NCBI GenBank assembly: GCA_027371545.1
Contig: DAHXMW010000003.1
Location: 9,831-73,830 of the forward strand
DNA: 64,000 bases
From: Candidatus Micrarchaeota archaeon
Lineage (GTDB): Archaea > Micrarchaeota > Micrarchaeia > Micrarchaeales > CABMGC01
Direction of reading: 5' to 3'
A program made the position numbers and the translations under genes. This document shows, one piece after another, positions 4,939 to 13,442 of this stretch (position 1 is its first letter; every line of letters begins with the position of its first letter). The notes under the pieces are model-generated. The model did no database searches and was not told where the DNA came from. It was given only the letters and a program-made list of their open reading frames with translations.

Positions 4939-5337
4939 TCAGCAGCTTGCAGGTAGCGTTATTGAGCCTCCGCCAGCTCCAGCTGTTCCGGAGAATCCTA
5001 CTACCATGTTGACAATGAATGGAGCTATTATTACGAGCACCAGCCCGATTACTCCTCCTACTATCATTGCCATAGACCATCCTTGTGCTCCTGCCCTTAC
5101 GTTTCCAGCTGCAGGCAACAGATGCGCTACCGCATAGATGGCACCGCCAGCTATGAAGAGAGCTATAGCCAATACACCTACGACAGTTCGTATTGTATTT
5201 ACTATGCCGCATATCTGTGAAGTTACTCCTGTAACTCCCGTTGCTGCTGATGCTATTATACTGGAAAATCCAAGAACCACTAATGCCATATACACTAGGT
5301 TCGTGAACTTCGATATGTTCATACAATCAACACGCAT
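4939..5337 (-). CDS. TrbC/VirB2-like pilin
   Basis: Signal peptide, then two hydrophobic helices joined by a short loop (AGNVRAGAQGW); Gly-rich tail ending in Cys. Alternative start at ATG 5322. Confidence 0.65.
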   Translation of the reverse strand: MRVDCMNISKFTNLVYMALVVLGFSSIIASAATGVTGVTSQICGIVNTIRTVVGVLAIALFIAGGAIYAVAHLLPAAGNVRAGAQGWSMAMIVGGVIGLVLVIIAPFIVNMVVGFSGTAGAGGGSITLPASC

Positions 5338-5402: not shown

Positions 5403-6437
5403 TTAGCCAAGCTTTTCCTTGAGGAAAGCGGCCGTGAGGTTCTCTATCTGCGGGATGGAGGGAGTTATAGGATTAGGACCTACTCGGGAAAAGCTATGAC
5501 CAGAATTATTGACTATGACCAGTGTCGCATTATCCCCATGTTCCGTGAGCGAGTTATATAATAAATATGACTGGTATGGCGGCACTGTGGTATCCTTATT
5601 GCCCTGGAATATCAGAAATGGAGGCTCGTTTGCCCCTATGTAGTTTATTGGGCTGGCAATCCCGAGCAGCGTGTAGTTTCCCATGAATACCTCGTTCAGA
5701 TCCTGCTGCCTGTACTCGTTTATCTGCGCGCTCGTGGAGTTGTGGTACTCATACCAGGTAAGGTTGCTTGGGCCGAAGTTATCCACTACAGCCTCCACCT
5801 TGCTAGAGTAGTTCGCATATGGGCCGCTAGACCATAGGCTACTGTTTGAAGTGAAGGCAAGAAGCTGCACGAGCTGGCCTCCAGCACTGCTTCCCACTAC
5901 TCCTATCTCATTAGGATTTATATTATATCTCGCTGCGTTCGCCCTGAAGTATCTTACGGCGCACTTGAGGTCTATTATCTGTGCGGGAAATGGATACTGC
6001 GGCGCAAGCCTGTAATTTATCGCTGCTACTACAAAATTATCCCTCAGTAGTGCAGGAACTATGAAATAGCTGTTTGCAGGAAGGGATGAGCCGTTTGCAA
6101 CGTATTTTTCCATCTGGGCGTAGGTTGCGTTGAACGCTGATCCTGCGTGCCAGCCGCCTCCGTGCACGACTATCACCAATGGCAACGTTTTGTTCCCGCT
6201 TGATGGTGGAAGGTATATGTATGCAGTATCTGAGCTGTTTCCGGATGGATTGCCAAACGGGCAGTAGCTTGCCTCAACCATCTGCGGACCGTAGAGTGTT
6301 CCATTTTTAGGCTGCTCCTCTGCCGAACTTGCTTTAGTATGGATATTGACTGCCACGTATGAGGCAAGTATTATGGTGATTGCGATTATTATGAATGCAG
6401 CAATAGTGCCATTATTTAATCTCTTATGCTGCTGCAT
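5403..6437 (-). CDS. Membrane-anchored/secreted alpha/beta hydrolase (HSL-family esterase)
   Basis: HGGGW oxyanion motif, GSSAGG nucleophile, D..VP and GH catalytic motifs, N-terminal TM. Start refined to ATG 6437 (MQQHK). Confidence 0.9.
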   Translation of the reverse strand: MQQHKRLNNGTIAAFIIIAITIILASYVAVNIHTKASSAEEQPKNGTLYGPQMVEASYCPFGNPSGNSSDTAYIYLPPSSGNKTLPLVIVVHGGGWHAGSAFNATYAQMEKYVANGSSLPANSYFIVPALLRDNFVVAAINYRLAPQYPFPAQIIDLKCAVRYFRANAARYNINPNEIGVVGSSAGGQLVQLLAFTSNSSLWSSGPYANYSSKVEAVVDNFGPSNLTWYEYHNSTSAQINEYRQQDLNEVFMGNYTLLGIASPINYIGANEPPFLIFQGNKDTTVPPYQSYLLYNSLTEHGDNATLVIVNNSGHSFSRVGPNPITPSIPQIENLTAAFLKEKLG

Positions 6438-6562
6438 TATTCCCTCCTTGAACCGCAAGTGCAGCCGCAATCGCAGCCATTCTTGCATACGCATCCCGAT
6501 GAGCATCCGCAGAGGCATCTTCCTCCGCACTCGCATCCGGCACCAGCGCCCTGATTTGCCAT
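6437..6562 (-). CDS. Metallothionein-like Cys-rich peptide (41 aa)
   Basis: MANQGAGAGCECGGRCLCGCSSGCVCKNGCDCGCTCGSRRE*: 11 Cys in CxC/CxCxC motifs. The stop overlaps the next ATG (TAATG). Confidence 0.75.
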   Translation of the reverse strand: MANQGAGAGCECGGRCLCGCSSGCVCKNGCDCGCTCGSRRE

Positions 6563-6647
6563 ATTATTACCATGTAATTTGCCGCAAGTGCTGCTTTAGC
6601 ACTGCGGTTATTATTAATGGGTCGCTTGGATTTATATTTGGTTGCGT

Positions 6648-7097
6648 ATGGTTTCCACCGCAAATGCTATTGCAATTGCCGTTTTTGTTTCAGTGCTTGT
6701 AGTGGCAATTTCTTATTATATCTTTATGAGCCTTGGAAGTCGTGGAACCGGAGAGGATTTTTCTTACGCGCACGTCAGCATTGGCAGCAGCGGAATCAAC
6801 GGAACATACTGGATAGCCAATACGATGCAGGAGGAAAAGTATGGGTATATGAATGCATCTTCCCCTGAAGTCTTAGGCAACGGAGAGAGATGCGATATTT
6901 GCAATGGAATGCTCTTTGAATTCGGATACAATCAGGGAATATGCATGTGGATGAAGAATACTAAAATGCAGCTCGTGATCAGATGGTTCTACCTTAACGG
7001 CAGCTTGTCCTATGAGCGCATAGGGATACCATATAACACAACACCGTACTGCGCATATTCCGCGTATGTTCTAGAGACAGAAGTACAAGGAGCATGA
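6648..7097 (+). CDS. DUF192-family membrane-anchored protein
   Basis: N-terminal TM; GMLFEF...MWMKNT...YVLE signature. Confidence 0.75.
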   Translation: MVSTANAIAIAVFVSVLVVAISYYIFMSLGSRGTGEDFSYAHVSIGSSGINGTYWIANTMQEEKYGYMNASSPEVLGNGERCDICNGMLFEFGYNQGICMWMKNTKMQLVIRWFYLNGSLSYERIGIPYNTTPYCAYSAYVLETEVQGA

Positions 7098-7098
7098 C

Positions 7099-8685
7099 TT
7101 ATTTTAGTTCAGGGTGAAAATCCATGCCATATATGCCATCTATATTTAATACACGTGCCTTTCCTTTCCTGCCCTTCATCACTATGGTGTAGAATGGGAG
7201 CGCTGCTTCCTTTGACCACATGACCCTGGCCCCTGGAAATAGCGAGACAGCCATCTTCTCCATGTATCTTGAACCGCCCTTTATGCGGTAGTAAGTAGAA
7301 TGCGCGTCGGATGCGTCCTCTATGCTGCGCACGTCTTCCGGTATAGACAGTGCATGAGTTACTACTGGTACGTAATGCTTGCCTTCAAGCTTTACTTGCC
7401 CTTTCTTTTCAAGCCTTTTCAGGATTGCTGATGAGCTTATCGCATCCATCTTAAGTTTCTTTGATATGGTTTCCGGAGTCGTGCGCCCGCTTTCCTGTGT
7501 TTCTTCAAGCGCTTTTATCTCGTCATCTGCGAGTCTTGCGCTCTTTACGCGCACTCCCTCAACCTGCTGGTTTGGATTGATTCTGAAGGCGAAGCCGTCG
7601 CCCATGAGGATTGTGCTGTCTTCATATTCGCCTCGCTTCTTTGAAGGTATGAGTATCCTCATCATATACGCATCTATGTAGCCTGGGCTTACAGACTCTA
7701 TCTCCTCCGTCTCGCTGCCGAAGAGCATGAATTCCTTCCTTGATTTTTTCTTGGCTATGGATCTTGCATCTTCCTCTGTTATGCGTCGTGCCAGTGAAGG
7801 CAGATGCATTGTGCGCTTCCCGGTTGCTTTTTGCTTCTGCAATGGCGTGGTTTCTGCATTCTTGCCTGCTCCTCGTATGTCTTTTAGGAGTTCCTCGATA
7901 GAAACATCCTTCTTTCCGTAAGTCTGGGAGAGCGATGGCGTACTTCCAGAATGCACAACTTCCCTGCGCTTCACCTTAAGGACCGTTTCTTCGGTTCCTT
8001 CTACACCGAAAGGAAGGAAGCTTCCAGTCTGCAGCCTCGGGAGCATATCCAGCTGCTCCTGCCTGCTGAAGAGTATCCTTATAGCCTGTACATCATTCTC
8101 GATGCTCAGCTTTCCTATGAATCCATAGGAGCATTGGGCCAGGACATTCTTGCTTATATTTGCAGGCCTCTGCGTAGCAACTAGAAGCCCTATGCCGCGC
8201 TTCCTTCCCCGTACGCTTATCTCTTCTATCATATTCTTCCTCTGCCTTACAATCTGCGGCGCAAACTTGTCGGCTTCCTCGATTATCACGAGAAACGGGC
8301 GCTTCGTGCCCTCTTCCATAGAGTACAGTTCGGATAGGGCAGACTGGACGCTCGCGTCCTTGTCCATGGTATCGGAGAGATCGTATATTATAGGTATCCC
8401 GTATTTCATGCTCTCGGAAAGGATCGCGCCCAAGCGCTCTGAAGATTTTATGTCAGCTGCAGGGTTGGCCTCTGATACCCATATCGCATTGAATTTTGAT
8501 TTTATTGATGCATACTCGCCTTCTGTGTCTATAACCATGAAGGGAAGACCGAGTTTGCAGAGCTCTTCGACTATTACTCCAACGAGGTATGACTTTCCTG
8601 AGCCACTCTGCCCTATCACGCATCCCCTTCCCGTCATTACCTGCTGCGCGTCTATGTTGAAATCTTCCGAGAGGTTTATCTGCAT
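7099..8685 (-). CDS. HerA/FtsK-superfamily (DUF87) ATPase with C-terminal winged-helix-like region
   Basis: Walker A GQSGSGKS, IDTEGEY, Walker B IIEEADKF, GRKRG...ATQRPA. Confidence 0.85.
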   Translation of the reverse strand: MQINLSEDFNIDAQQVMTGRGCVIGQSGSGKSYLVGVIVEELCKLGLPFMVIDTEGEYASIKSKFNAIWVSEANPAADIKSSERLGAILSESMKYGIPIIYDLSDTMDKDASVQSALSELYSMEEGTKRPFLVIIEEADKFAPQIVRQRKNMIEEISVRGRKRGIGLLVATQRPANISKNVLAQCSYGFIGKLSIENDVQAIRILFSRQEQLDMLPRLQTGSFLPFGVEGTEETVLKVKRREVVHSGSTPSLSQTYGKKDVSIEELLKDIRGAGKNAETTPLQKQKATGKRTMHLPSLARRITEEDARSIAKKKSRKEFMLFGSETEEIESVSPGYIDAYMMRILIPSKKRGEYEDSTILMGDGFAFRINPNQQVEGVRVKSARLADDEIKALEETQESGRTTPETISKKLKMDAISSSAILKRLEKKGQVKLEGKHYVPVVTHALSIPEDVRSIEDASDAHSTYYRIKGGSRYMEKMAVSLFPGARVMWSKEAALPFYTIVMKGRKGKARVLNIDGIYGMDFHPELK

Positions 8686-12272: not shown

Positions 12273-13442
12273 TTACCCCTTCTTTTTAGAGAAGAAGTAT
12301 AGAAGCGCGGCAACTATGACTATTACCACTATTATTGCTATTACCAGTCCCAGATTGCTGGAAGATGAGCTTGGTGGCGGCGTTGTCGATGTGGTATTTG
12401 AAGGCTGCGGAGATGTGGCTGTCGGAGCTGAGAGCGCAGCAGTCCTGGTAAGGAATACCCATACTACAGGCTTGTAGAATTCGTTGTTTACAAGCGTTGT
12501 GCTGTTTGGATACTCCCACTTATTGGCTATTGCATACTTGCCGCCAACATATGCTGTGCCATTGTAGTTTCCGCCAAGATATGTCCAGGTTGTCGTTGCG
12601 CTTGAATTTGGCAGGCGCAGTACGGTTATTATCGGATCTGGAGCCCTGCTTGAATTTACAAATGATATTGTAGGGGTTATCAGCCCGTTAACCGCAAATG
12701 CATAAGCCCCTGTAGGAGTGTATCCTGACATATTCTGCGGGACGGATAGGGATGTAGGCACATCGAAGAATACGACTGAGAAATTATACTGGGATTCCAG
12801 TACGTTATCTACCAGCGCATATGTTCCAGGCCTTATCTCCACGCCATTGCCGTTTCCCAGGCTTATGTTTGCTCCGGTTGATGCGTTTATTATTATTGAT
12901 CCCTTCTGCACCACAGGAAATACGGTCAGGCTTGGCGTTATTGTAGTGGTGTTGTGGGATGTGGTATTCGTTGTTGTAGTATTGGTTGTGGTTGTTTTTG
13001 TTGTGGTTGTGTTGGCCGTGGTTGTGGTGTTGGAAGGGGATTTAGTGGATAGCACATTTATCGAGAATAGCACAGGGGCTGTAGACGGATCATCGCCTGT
13101 TGCCACTATAGATGCAGTATATTTTCCTGGAGTTGCCGAGGATGATGCTGCTACTGTAAGCGTTCCGGAATAAGTAGGGTCCGCGTAGCTTTTTGAGAAT
13201 GACAGGTTTATGCCATCTGAAGCAAGTGCGGAAGCATTTGATGCTGATATTGTGGTTCCCCATGTGGATCCGCTGGCCAGCTTTACGGTGTACGCCACGA
13301 GTACGTTTGAGCCCGGATGCAGCGAGACGGAGGAGACATTAAGCGCGATTGATGAAGTGCCTATGCCATTTGCCGCGTATGACTGGAAGGCAAGGAGTGC
13401 CATGCCTATTACAAACATCCGGATATAAGTAGTCCTCTCCAT
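12273..13442 (-). CDS. Cell-surface glycoprotein with Thr-rich linkers and C-terminal TM anchor
   Basis: Signal peptide, Ig-like beta domain, NTTTT repeats, C-terminal TM followed by KKKG. Confidence 0.8.
   Translation of the reverse strand: MERTTYIRMFVIGMALLAFQSYAANGIGTSSIALNVSSVSLHPGSNVLVAYTVKLASGSTWGTTISASNASALASDGINLSFSKSYADPTYSGTLTVAASSSATPGKYTASIVATGDDPSTAPVLFSINVLSTKSPSNTTTTANTTTTKTTTTNTTTTNTTSHNTTTITPSLTVFPVVQKGSIIINASTGANISLGNGNGVEIRPGTYALVDNVLESQYNFSVVFFDVPTSLSVPQNMSGYTPTGAYAFAVNGLITPTISFVNSSRAPDPIITVLRLPNSSATTTWTYLGGNYNGTAYVGGKYAIANKWEYPNSTTLVNNEFYKPVVWVFLTRTAALSAPTATSPQPSNTTSTTPPPSSSSSNLGLVIAIIVVIVIVAALLYFFSKKKG

Follow-up and report, generated by a model that had tools for sequence, protein, structure and literature searches.

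Metallothioneins are the textbook metal buffers of eukaryotes and some bacteria, and the locus considered here raises the question of whether an archaeon also encodes such a protein. The locus lies in a 64,000-nucleotide stretch of contig DAHXMW010000003.1 (positions 9,831 to 73,830 of the forward strand; hereafter the window, equivalent to C28:9831-73830) from assembly GCA_027371545.1 of a Candidatus Micrarchaeota archaeon, which comprises 858,584 bases in 30 contigs and is 74% complete with 3.4% contamination. A first-pass annotation of the window, made from its letters alone, had singled out a 41-codon open reading frame (ORF) overlapping the start of an esterase gene and suggested that it encodes an unannotated, metallothionein-like micro-protein of a DPANN archaeon; that the host belongs to the Micrarchaeota agrees with the last point. 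This article argues that the frame (hereafter the micro-ORF) is almost certainly a real, conserved gene, as judged from its pattern of substitution. For its product, the explanation towards which we lean, with moderate confidence, is a cytosolic metallothionein-type metal-thiolate protein of mine-drainage Micrarchaeota. The family to which it belongs appears to be previously undescribed and, within the scope searched, restricted to one order of this phylum, and as a conserved candidate of 41-53 residues it makes the existence of archaeal metallothioneins directly testable.

The reading frame and its conservation

The micro-ORF runs on the minus strand from window position 6562 to 6437, as had been reported, and its translation is MANQGAGAGCECGGRCLCGCSSGCVCKNGCDCGCTCGSRRE, a protein of 41 residues with 11 Cys, 10 Gly and no Phe, Trp, Tyr or His; this count agrees with the earlier one except for Gly, of which 11 had been reported. 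The Cys residues occupy positions 10, 12, 16, 18, 20, 24, 26, 30, 32, 34, and 36, and because all of these are even, TGC (GCA on the plus strand) recurs in one six-nucleotide phase. The frame does, as proposed, explain the 6-bp GCATCC-like periodicity of this stretch: Tandem Repeats Finder returns a single weak 12-nt array (2.2 copies, score 38), so the periodicity is an effect of the codons and not a DNA repeat. Among the 7,695 ORFs of at least 30 aa in the 858-kb assembly, the micro-ORF and a sister copy described below head the list for CxC motifs (seven, against five for the next ORF) and rank second and third in Cys fraction, their 0.268 comparing with 0.0092 in ORFs of at least 200 aa. 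The highest Cys fraction in the genome belongs to a 32-aa ORF at window 12954-13052 on the plus strand (9 Cys, 28%), which is probably an out-of-frame artefact, lying antisense within a 389-aa ORF (12273..13442) that has no Pfam family.

A frame of this size might simply be a chance one in a GC-rich, low-complexity stretch, or be kept open by a DNA or RNA element. All six frames are open across window 6440-6555, so that an open frame is by itself no evidence of a gene, and the local GC content is 0.60 compared with 0.46 genome-wide. Comparison with relatives makes a non-gene very improbable. When 401 genomes of the phylum were searched by tblastn (a sample whose tallies include the unpublished genome G198, on which no conclusion rests by itself), 70 genomes gave a match at E ≤ 1, and 34 of them gave full-length matches at E ≤ 1e-5 with 53-100% identity: 26 of 82 genomes in one family (f1), 7 of 94 in a second family of the same order (f2), and the window's own genome. 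Matches in the other 36 were set aside as noise, being short (E 0.0087-0.885) and in many cases interrupted by stop codons. A tBLASTn survey of DPANN genomes was the check that the first-pass annotation had put forward, and the relatives found here conserve the Cys frame. In 31 loci that were fetched, a start codon stands at the same position in every case (28 ATG, one GTG, one TTG, and one ATA), the frame is 41-53 codons long, and all 11 Cys are retained in all loci save L031, in which Asp replaces Cys20 and one residue is inserted. Scans of genome and metagenome contigs added at least 17 further loci, at least nine from metagenome-assembled genome records of Candidatus Micrarchaeota or Micrarchaeales and at least eight from metagenome contigs, and every one of the 17 confirmed has an ATG together with the complete Cys frame; the pattern matches behind them numbered at least 598 in genome contigs and at least 595 in metagenome contigs, which does not bound the range of the family.

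The substitution pattern was examined in 28 distinct sequences of 120 nt, with L031 and the G198 locus excluded (the latter has a public twin, L039). Mean pairwise differences at codon positions 1, 2, and 3 are 0.16, 0.19, and 0.50, and the proportions of synonymous (pS) and non-synonymous (pN) differences are 0.72 and 0.17, giving a pN/pS of 0.24; four of the remaining frames give 1.2-2.2, and one antisense frame gives 0.40. The micro-ORF frame is the only one open in all 28 sequences, other frames being open in 15-23, and its Cys codons alternate between TGC (268) and TGT (40); a comparison of 29 sequences with G198 included gives the same picture. Between the window and its nearest relatives, changes are predominantly synonymous (12.5 synonymous and 3.5 non-synonymous with the sister sequence L002, 13 and 2 with L003). 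Since third positions vary most, pN/pS is low, and the changes from the nearest relatives are mostly synonymous, selection is, by every indication from the codons, acting on the protein rather than on a DNA or RNA motif; start and stop are also conserved, and the stretch has no Rfam match at E ≤ 1.

The sister copy lies on contig C10 (26.2 kb) of the same assembly, within the same gene order. C10 is collinear with C28:14726-40627 (window about 4896-30797) at ~82% identity throughout, and over the 120 nt compared, its micro-ORF shows no difference from that of G349, a genome of the same genus. On these grounds, a paralogue was rejected; C10 most likely belongs to a sister species and was co-binned, and the bin thus seems to mix contigs of two sister species. 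Apparent second or more divergent copies were noted in three other genomes, at G186:C22:18371-18490 (E = 1.8e-10), G174:C2:10286-10396 (E = 1.8e-4), and G205:C36:34856-34972 (E = 8.9e-6).

Gene callers miss the micro-protein, and it is almost never annotated. A profile search of 5.8 billion proteins recovered eight family members, one of which carries the name 'hypothetical protein [Candidatus Micrarchaeota archaeon]'; the window protein itself is not among the eight, which upholds its description as unannotated; a profile search of 1.84 billion representatives recovered six proteins, from which P0010, a 702-aa repeat protein unrelated to the family, was discarded. A family under clear purifying selection is thus nearly absent from the databases, though tblastn finds it in about one-fifth of the sampled genomes of two families, a discrepancy that bears on small-protein annotation in reduced DPANN genomes. 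One recovered protein, P0009, is a distant, acidic variant of 53 aa that keeps the Cys frame but has Asp or Glu where the others have Gly; it stands as a singleton within the 5.8-billion collection and derives from one 3.5-kb ENA contig.

Architecture of the family

The family was aligned as 27 sequences (alignment A1), a set that excludes the duplicates L004, L008, and L025 and the unpublished L019. The consensus reads MANQGAGxGCECGGxCxCGCxxGCxCKxxCxCGCTCGERR and continues into a charged tail. It resolves into a MANQGAGxG cap, two CxCxxxCxCGC modules linked by xxG, TCGERR as the closing element, and, in most members, a tail of 5-13 residues, which the three sequences of the window's genus lack. 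Both modules fit the pattern in 26 of the 27 members, and the same number have 11 Cys. Members are 41-53 aa long (median 49), with 21-27% Cys (overall 23% Cys and 22% Gly); the 40-residue core is free of aromatic residues in 19 of 27, and His occurs in six, mostly within the tail. Invariant throughout are cysteines C10, C12, C16, C18, C24, C26, C30, C32, C34, and C36 together with nine other residues, N3, Q4, G7, E11, G13, G14, G19, G33, and R39. Direct reading reveals no N-terminal hydrophobic segment, so the protein is presumably cytosolic. AlphaFold2, run with the 27 sequences, predicts almost no secondary structure, as would be expected for a fold that needs metal; its predicted local distance difference test score, 54.7, is too low to serve a fold search.

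Likeness to metallothioneins

Scarcity of aromatic residues and His is among the criteria by which metallothioneins are recognized. An operational description in the Introduction of PMC13578184 names low mass (about 3.5-14 kDa) and a high content of Cys in recurring CxC, CxxC, or CC motifs. The window protein has a computed mass of 3,969 Da, Cys at 11 of its 41 residues (27%) in seven overlapping CxC motifs, and neither aromatic residues nor His. The hallmarks hold across the family, whose members of 41-53 aa (~4 kDa) carry 21-27% Cys as CxC, are rich in Gly with few aromatics or His, have no predicted regular secondary structure, and are apparently cytosolic, all of which they share with metallothioneins in the operational sense. 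They differ from them in being archaeal with no detectable homology to any Pfam metallothionein family, in having all Cys in one two-residue phase arranged as two CxCxxxCxCGC modules, and in the unusual conservation of the MANQGAG cap and E11. The metallothionein-like reading of the first-pass annotation therefore stands as regards sequence hallmarks, whereas kinship with a known metallothionein family does not follow from it.

Two named metallothionein groups come closest. The bacterial metallothioneins of the SmtA/BmtA type (Metallothio_Pro) are metal buffers that are likewise prokaryotic, small, and Cys-rich; in the SmtA type, however, His residues serve as ligands and the fold resembles a zinc finger, whereas His is absent from the window protein and the micro-protein has no Pfam hit. 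In the ESM Atlas, a resource based on language-model features, the neighbours are unnamed archaeal clusters of 47-49 aa, and the best named cluster is the dipteran metallothionein family PF02067 (Metallothio_5; length ~41 aa), with a score of 0.84 and 181 of 256 features, which is a lead only: the likeness is one of composition and not demonstrable kinship. Phrases denoting archaeal metallothioneins were not found in the searchable literature, a scope outside which subscription literature such as a 2018 Metallomics review falls, and the same literature did not yield 'Micrarchaeum' together with 'cysteine-rich'. Term searches of the main text of PMC3600143, PMC3407056, PMC5852612, PMC5864196, and PMC9781358 returned no statement on archaeal metallothioneins.

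In the mechanism that we favour, the apo-protein would be unstructured, and its Cys thiolates would enclose several soft metal ions, forming metal-thiolate clusters of the kind seen in metallothioneins. If known cluster chemistry is a guide, about four Zn(II) or Cd(II) ions, or six to eight Cu(I) ions, would be a suitable load for 11 Cys. The micro-protein might in this way act as a cytoplasmic buffer of metal ions, or detoxify them, in a mine-drainage archaeon.

Habitat and metal-handling genes

The stretch is present, whole or in part, in contigs of 13 sequencing runs from four studies (one of which is possibly its source) labelled as mine drainage, mine tailings, or metagenome. The metal-rich acidic habitat suggested in the first-pass annotation is supported to the extent that the stretch occurs in mine-drainage and mine-tailings metagenomes, and the family bears on how host-dependent archaea cope with the metal loads of mine drainage. 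Window positions 6200-6800 are identical in one contig of each of four DNA runs compared, and contigs of co-occurring relatives in those runs align over 6444-6511 and 6200-6297.

The assembly encodes three P-type ATPases, two of them with a CPC motif, and a CDF transporter adjoins one; with two CPC-type ATPases and a CDF transporter, the genome evidently handles metals. The CPC-type ATPases, at C27:24876-25415 and C2:34722-35261, begin with an N-terminal Cys motif that we take to be of the TRASH/YHS type. The two are near-identical, of which the mixture of two species in the bin may be the cause. No HMA domain (PF00403) was detected in the assembly, which is 74% complete. In the phylum sample, only 2 of 82 f1 genomes and 1 of 94 f2 genomes have this domain, whereas 145 of 224 genomes from the other families do. 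The only order in which the micro-protein was found is the one nearly devoid of HMA domains; this overlap is one lineage-level coincidence and not a statistical association.

Alternative functions

Several results weigh against a metallothionein-type protein. The window protein matches no Pfam family at E ≤ 1 or E ≤ 10; across alignment A1, PF02067 appears in HMMER searches for 5 of 27 members at E ≥ 0.76 and NCBIfam gives one bacteriocin-precursor row (1 of 27, E = 3.7), neither being significant, and a PDB sequence search gives only compositional rows for viral 1A protein and conotoxin at E 0.45-0.6. The ESM Atlas score is under the tool's 0.9 level. The nine invariant non-Cys residues exceed the need of a plain metal sponge and hint at a defined fold or partner. 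A scan of 49 neighbour ORFs from 24 loci at E ≤ 1e-5 found no metal pump, metallochaperone, or metal regulator, and no RNA run is among the sequencing runs that contain the stretch. The distribution is, moreover, patchy, with certain genera possessing the gene and others lacking it; at 33 of 176 sampled genomes of f1 and f2 besides the window's own, the gene is not how the order in general copes with metal stress.

Several of these points favour the main rival, in which the micro-protein does not serve bulk sequestration and is instead a structural Zn or Fe-S adaptor working with a partner, a metallochaperone, or a thiol redox buffer, which we regard as possible though doubtful. It would account for the invariant non-Cys residues, the pN/pS of 0.24, and a presence or absence that follows genera, and it draws support from the near-absence of HMA domains from the order, for a different chaperone could be needed where P1B ATPases start with a TRASH/YHS-like Cys motif. 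The gene is, however, carried by only 33 of 176 genomes of the two HMA-poor families, one genome (G326) has both an HMA domain and the gene, no conserved neighbour presents itself as a candidate partner, and the CxC spacing is atypical for ligands of Fe-S clusters. A view that combines both ideas, with the micro-protein as the first archaeal metallothionein-type family, hidden by automated gene calling, and as a cytosolic buffer or chaperone handing Cu or Zn to TRASH-domain P1B pumps in an order nearly stripped of the universal HMA-type domain, is more speculative still.

Two further readings are unlikely, as is the non-gene considered above, and the genomic neighbourhood bears on both. Between genera, the neighbours scanned are unrelated; examples are a NADH-dehydrogenase subunit with PheRS, UbiA/UbiD, SIMPL, 2-oxoacid dehydrogenase E2/E3, Rieske, GATase, EamA with an M16 peptidase, HtrA, MscL with L1, Pelota, isocitrate dehydrogenase, and Amidohydro_2. 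A precursor of a ribosomally made, post-translationally modified or secreted Cys-rich peptide would fit the small size, the conserved N-terminal segment ahead of a Cys-rich core, and the non-significant bacteriocin-precursor row; against such a peptide, the neighbours scanned are unrelated housekeeping genes with no recurrent radical-SAM, YcaO, lanthipeptide-type, or peptidase/exporter gene that could supply a maturase, protease, or exporter, direct reading reveals no signal peptide, and the genomes are reduced, at ~1 Mb. Slightly less credible again is a Cys-sensing leader ORF controlling the esterase, on the model of the mycobacterial polycysteine leader ORFs described in bioRxiv 10.1101/834739, which are likewise short Cys-rich first cistrons overlapping a downstream gene. 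In the window's genus, the micro-ORF does overlap the esterase start and contains the putative ribosome-binding site of that gene. A Cys-responsive leader should always lie ahead of a regulated gene on its own strand and conserve its regulatory codons alone. Across genera, however, it is the micro-peptide that is conserved, with varying genes downstream of it: 10 of 27 loci have a convergent gene next, on the opposite strand, same-strand ones come from unrelated families, and none of the 49 neighbour ORFs provides a downstream cysteine-metabolism gene, while non-Cys residues are conserved and the whole peptide is under purifying selection. In several other loci, the micro-ORF begins 6-21 nt after a same-strand upstream gene, a gap short enough to make co-transcription with that gene probable.

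Organization and expression signals of the locus

The coordinates of the micro-ORF and of the features around it are collected in Table 1. In the window's genus only, the micro-ORF would be the first cistron of a two-gene unit with a membrane-anchored or secreted esterase. The TAATG overlap described in the first-pass annotation is present, and all three distinct sequences of the genus have such a stop/start overlap (TAATG in the window, ATGA in L002, and TAATG in L003) as well as an AGGAG-type site within the final codons of the micro-ORF, the counterparts of AGGAGG being AGGAGAGG in L002 and AGGAGAAG in L003. With the overlap and the esterase ribosome-binding site so placed, translation of the esterase is probably coupled to that of the micro-ORF in this genus. 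The proposed link to the esterase therefore survives for the window's genus, whereas it is no feature of the family, as the neighbours differ between genera. The esterase itself likely starts at the ATG at 6437, and a 377-aa ORF beginning at 6536 is likely an artefact, because in L002 the frame is closed upstream of the overlapping ATG.

Table 1. Features of the micro-ORF locus, in window coordinates.
Feature	Position	Strand	Remarks
Micro-protein coding sequence	6437..6562	minus	41 codons + TAA; ATG at 6562..6560
Module A	6503..6535	minus	Residues C10-C20, CECGGRCLCGC; pattern CxCxxxCxCGC
Module B	6461..6493	minus	Residues C24-C34, CVCKNGCDCGC, then T-C36; same pattern
TATA-like box TTAATAAT	6610..6617	minus	55 nt upstream of ATG; putative archaeal promoter, consensus match
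Imperfect 26-nt palindrome	6582..6607	.	Between TATA-like box and ATG; read from sequence
GGTAA, weak Shine-Dalgarno-like site	6567..6571	minus	5-9 nt before ATG; putative
AGGAGG	6443..6448	minus	In last codons of micro-ORF (Arg39-Arg40), 5 nt before esterase ATG; likely esterase Shine-Dalgarno site
TAATG stop/start overlap	6435..6439	minus	TAA 6439..6437 shares its last A with esterase ATG 6437..6435
Esterase (BD-FAE, alpha-beta hydrolase)	5403..6437	minus	PF20434, E = 1e-53; N-terminal hydrophobic segment
DUF192 gene	6642..7097	plus	PF02643, E = 2e-6; divergent, shares 80-nt intergenic region with micro-ORF

Upstream of the micro-ORF, TTAATAAT stands at -55/-54 in all three sequences of the genus (L001, L002, and L003), and across the family 12 of 28 loci have a TATA-like motif 25-70 nt upstream, compared with a frequency of 4.9% at arbitrary positions. 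An exact 5-mer of what we take as the archaeal Shine-Dalgarno consensus occurs at -16..-4 in 5 of 28 loci, the window locus not among them, against a background of 4.2%. The palindrome between the TATA-like box and the start codon is not conserved in L002, and in L003 its place is taken by a different, short palindrome; a role as operator or 5' hairpin is speculative. The arrangement with the divergent DUF192 gene is the same in L002.

The N-terminal segment of the esterase has a weak archaeal pilin-like match (PF07790, E = 0.021), and this end of the gene (about 6297-6444) has diverged from that of co-occurring relatives, with the flanks still aligning. The wider window consists of ordinary chromosomal genes, among them those for a dienelactone hydrolase, an AlaX-like protein, a beta-CASP nuclease, and an EamA transporter. 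At 4939-5337 (minus strand) lies a gene for a 132-aa membrane protein whose TrbC/VirB2-pilin matches are weak (E = 0.0015) and fall short of the cut-off. On the other side, the locus is flanked at 7099-8685 (minus strand) by a gene for a 528-aa HerA/DUF87-type ATPase with a C-terminal winged-helix region, and a similar ATPase, sharing by eye a common N-terminal motif, adjoins the micro-ORF in L013, L017, and L029 of another genus.

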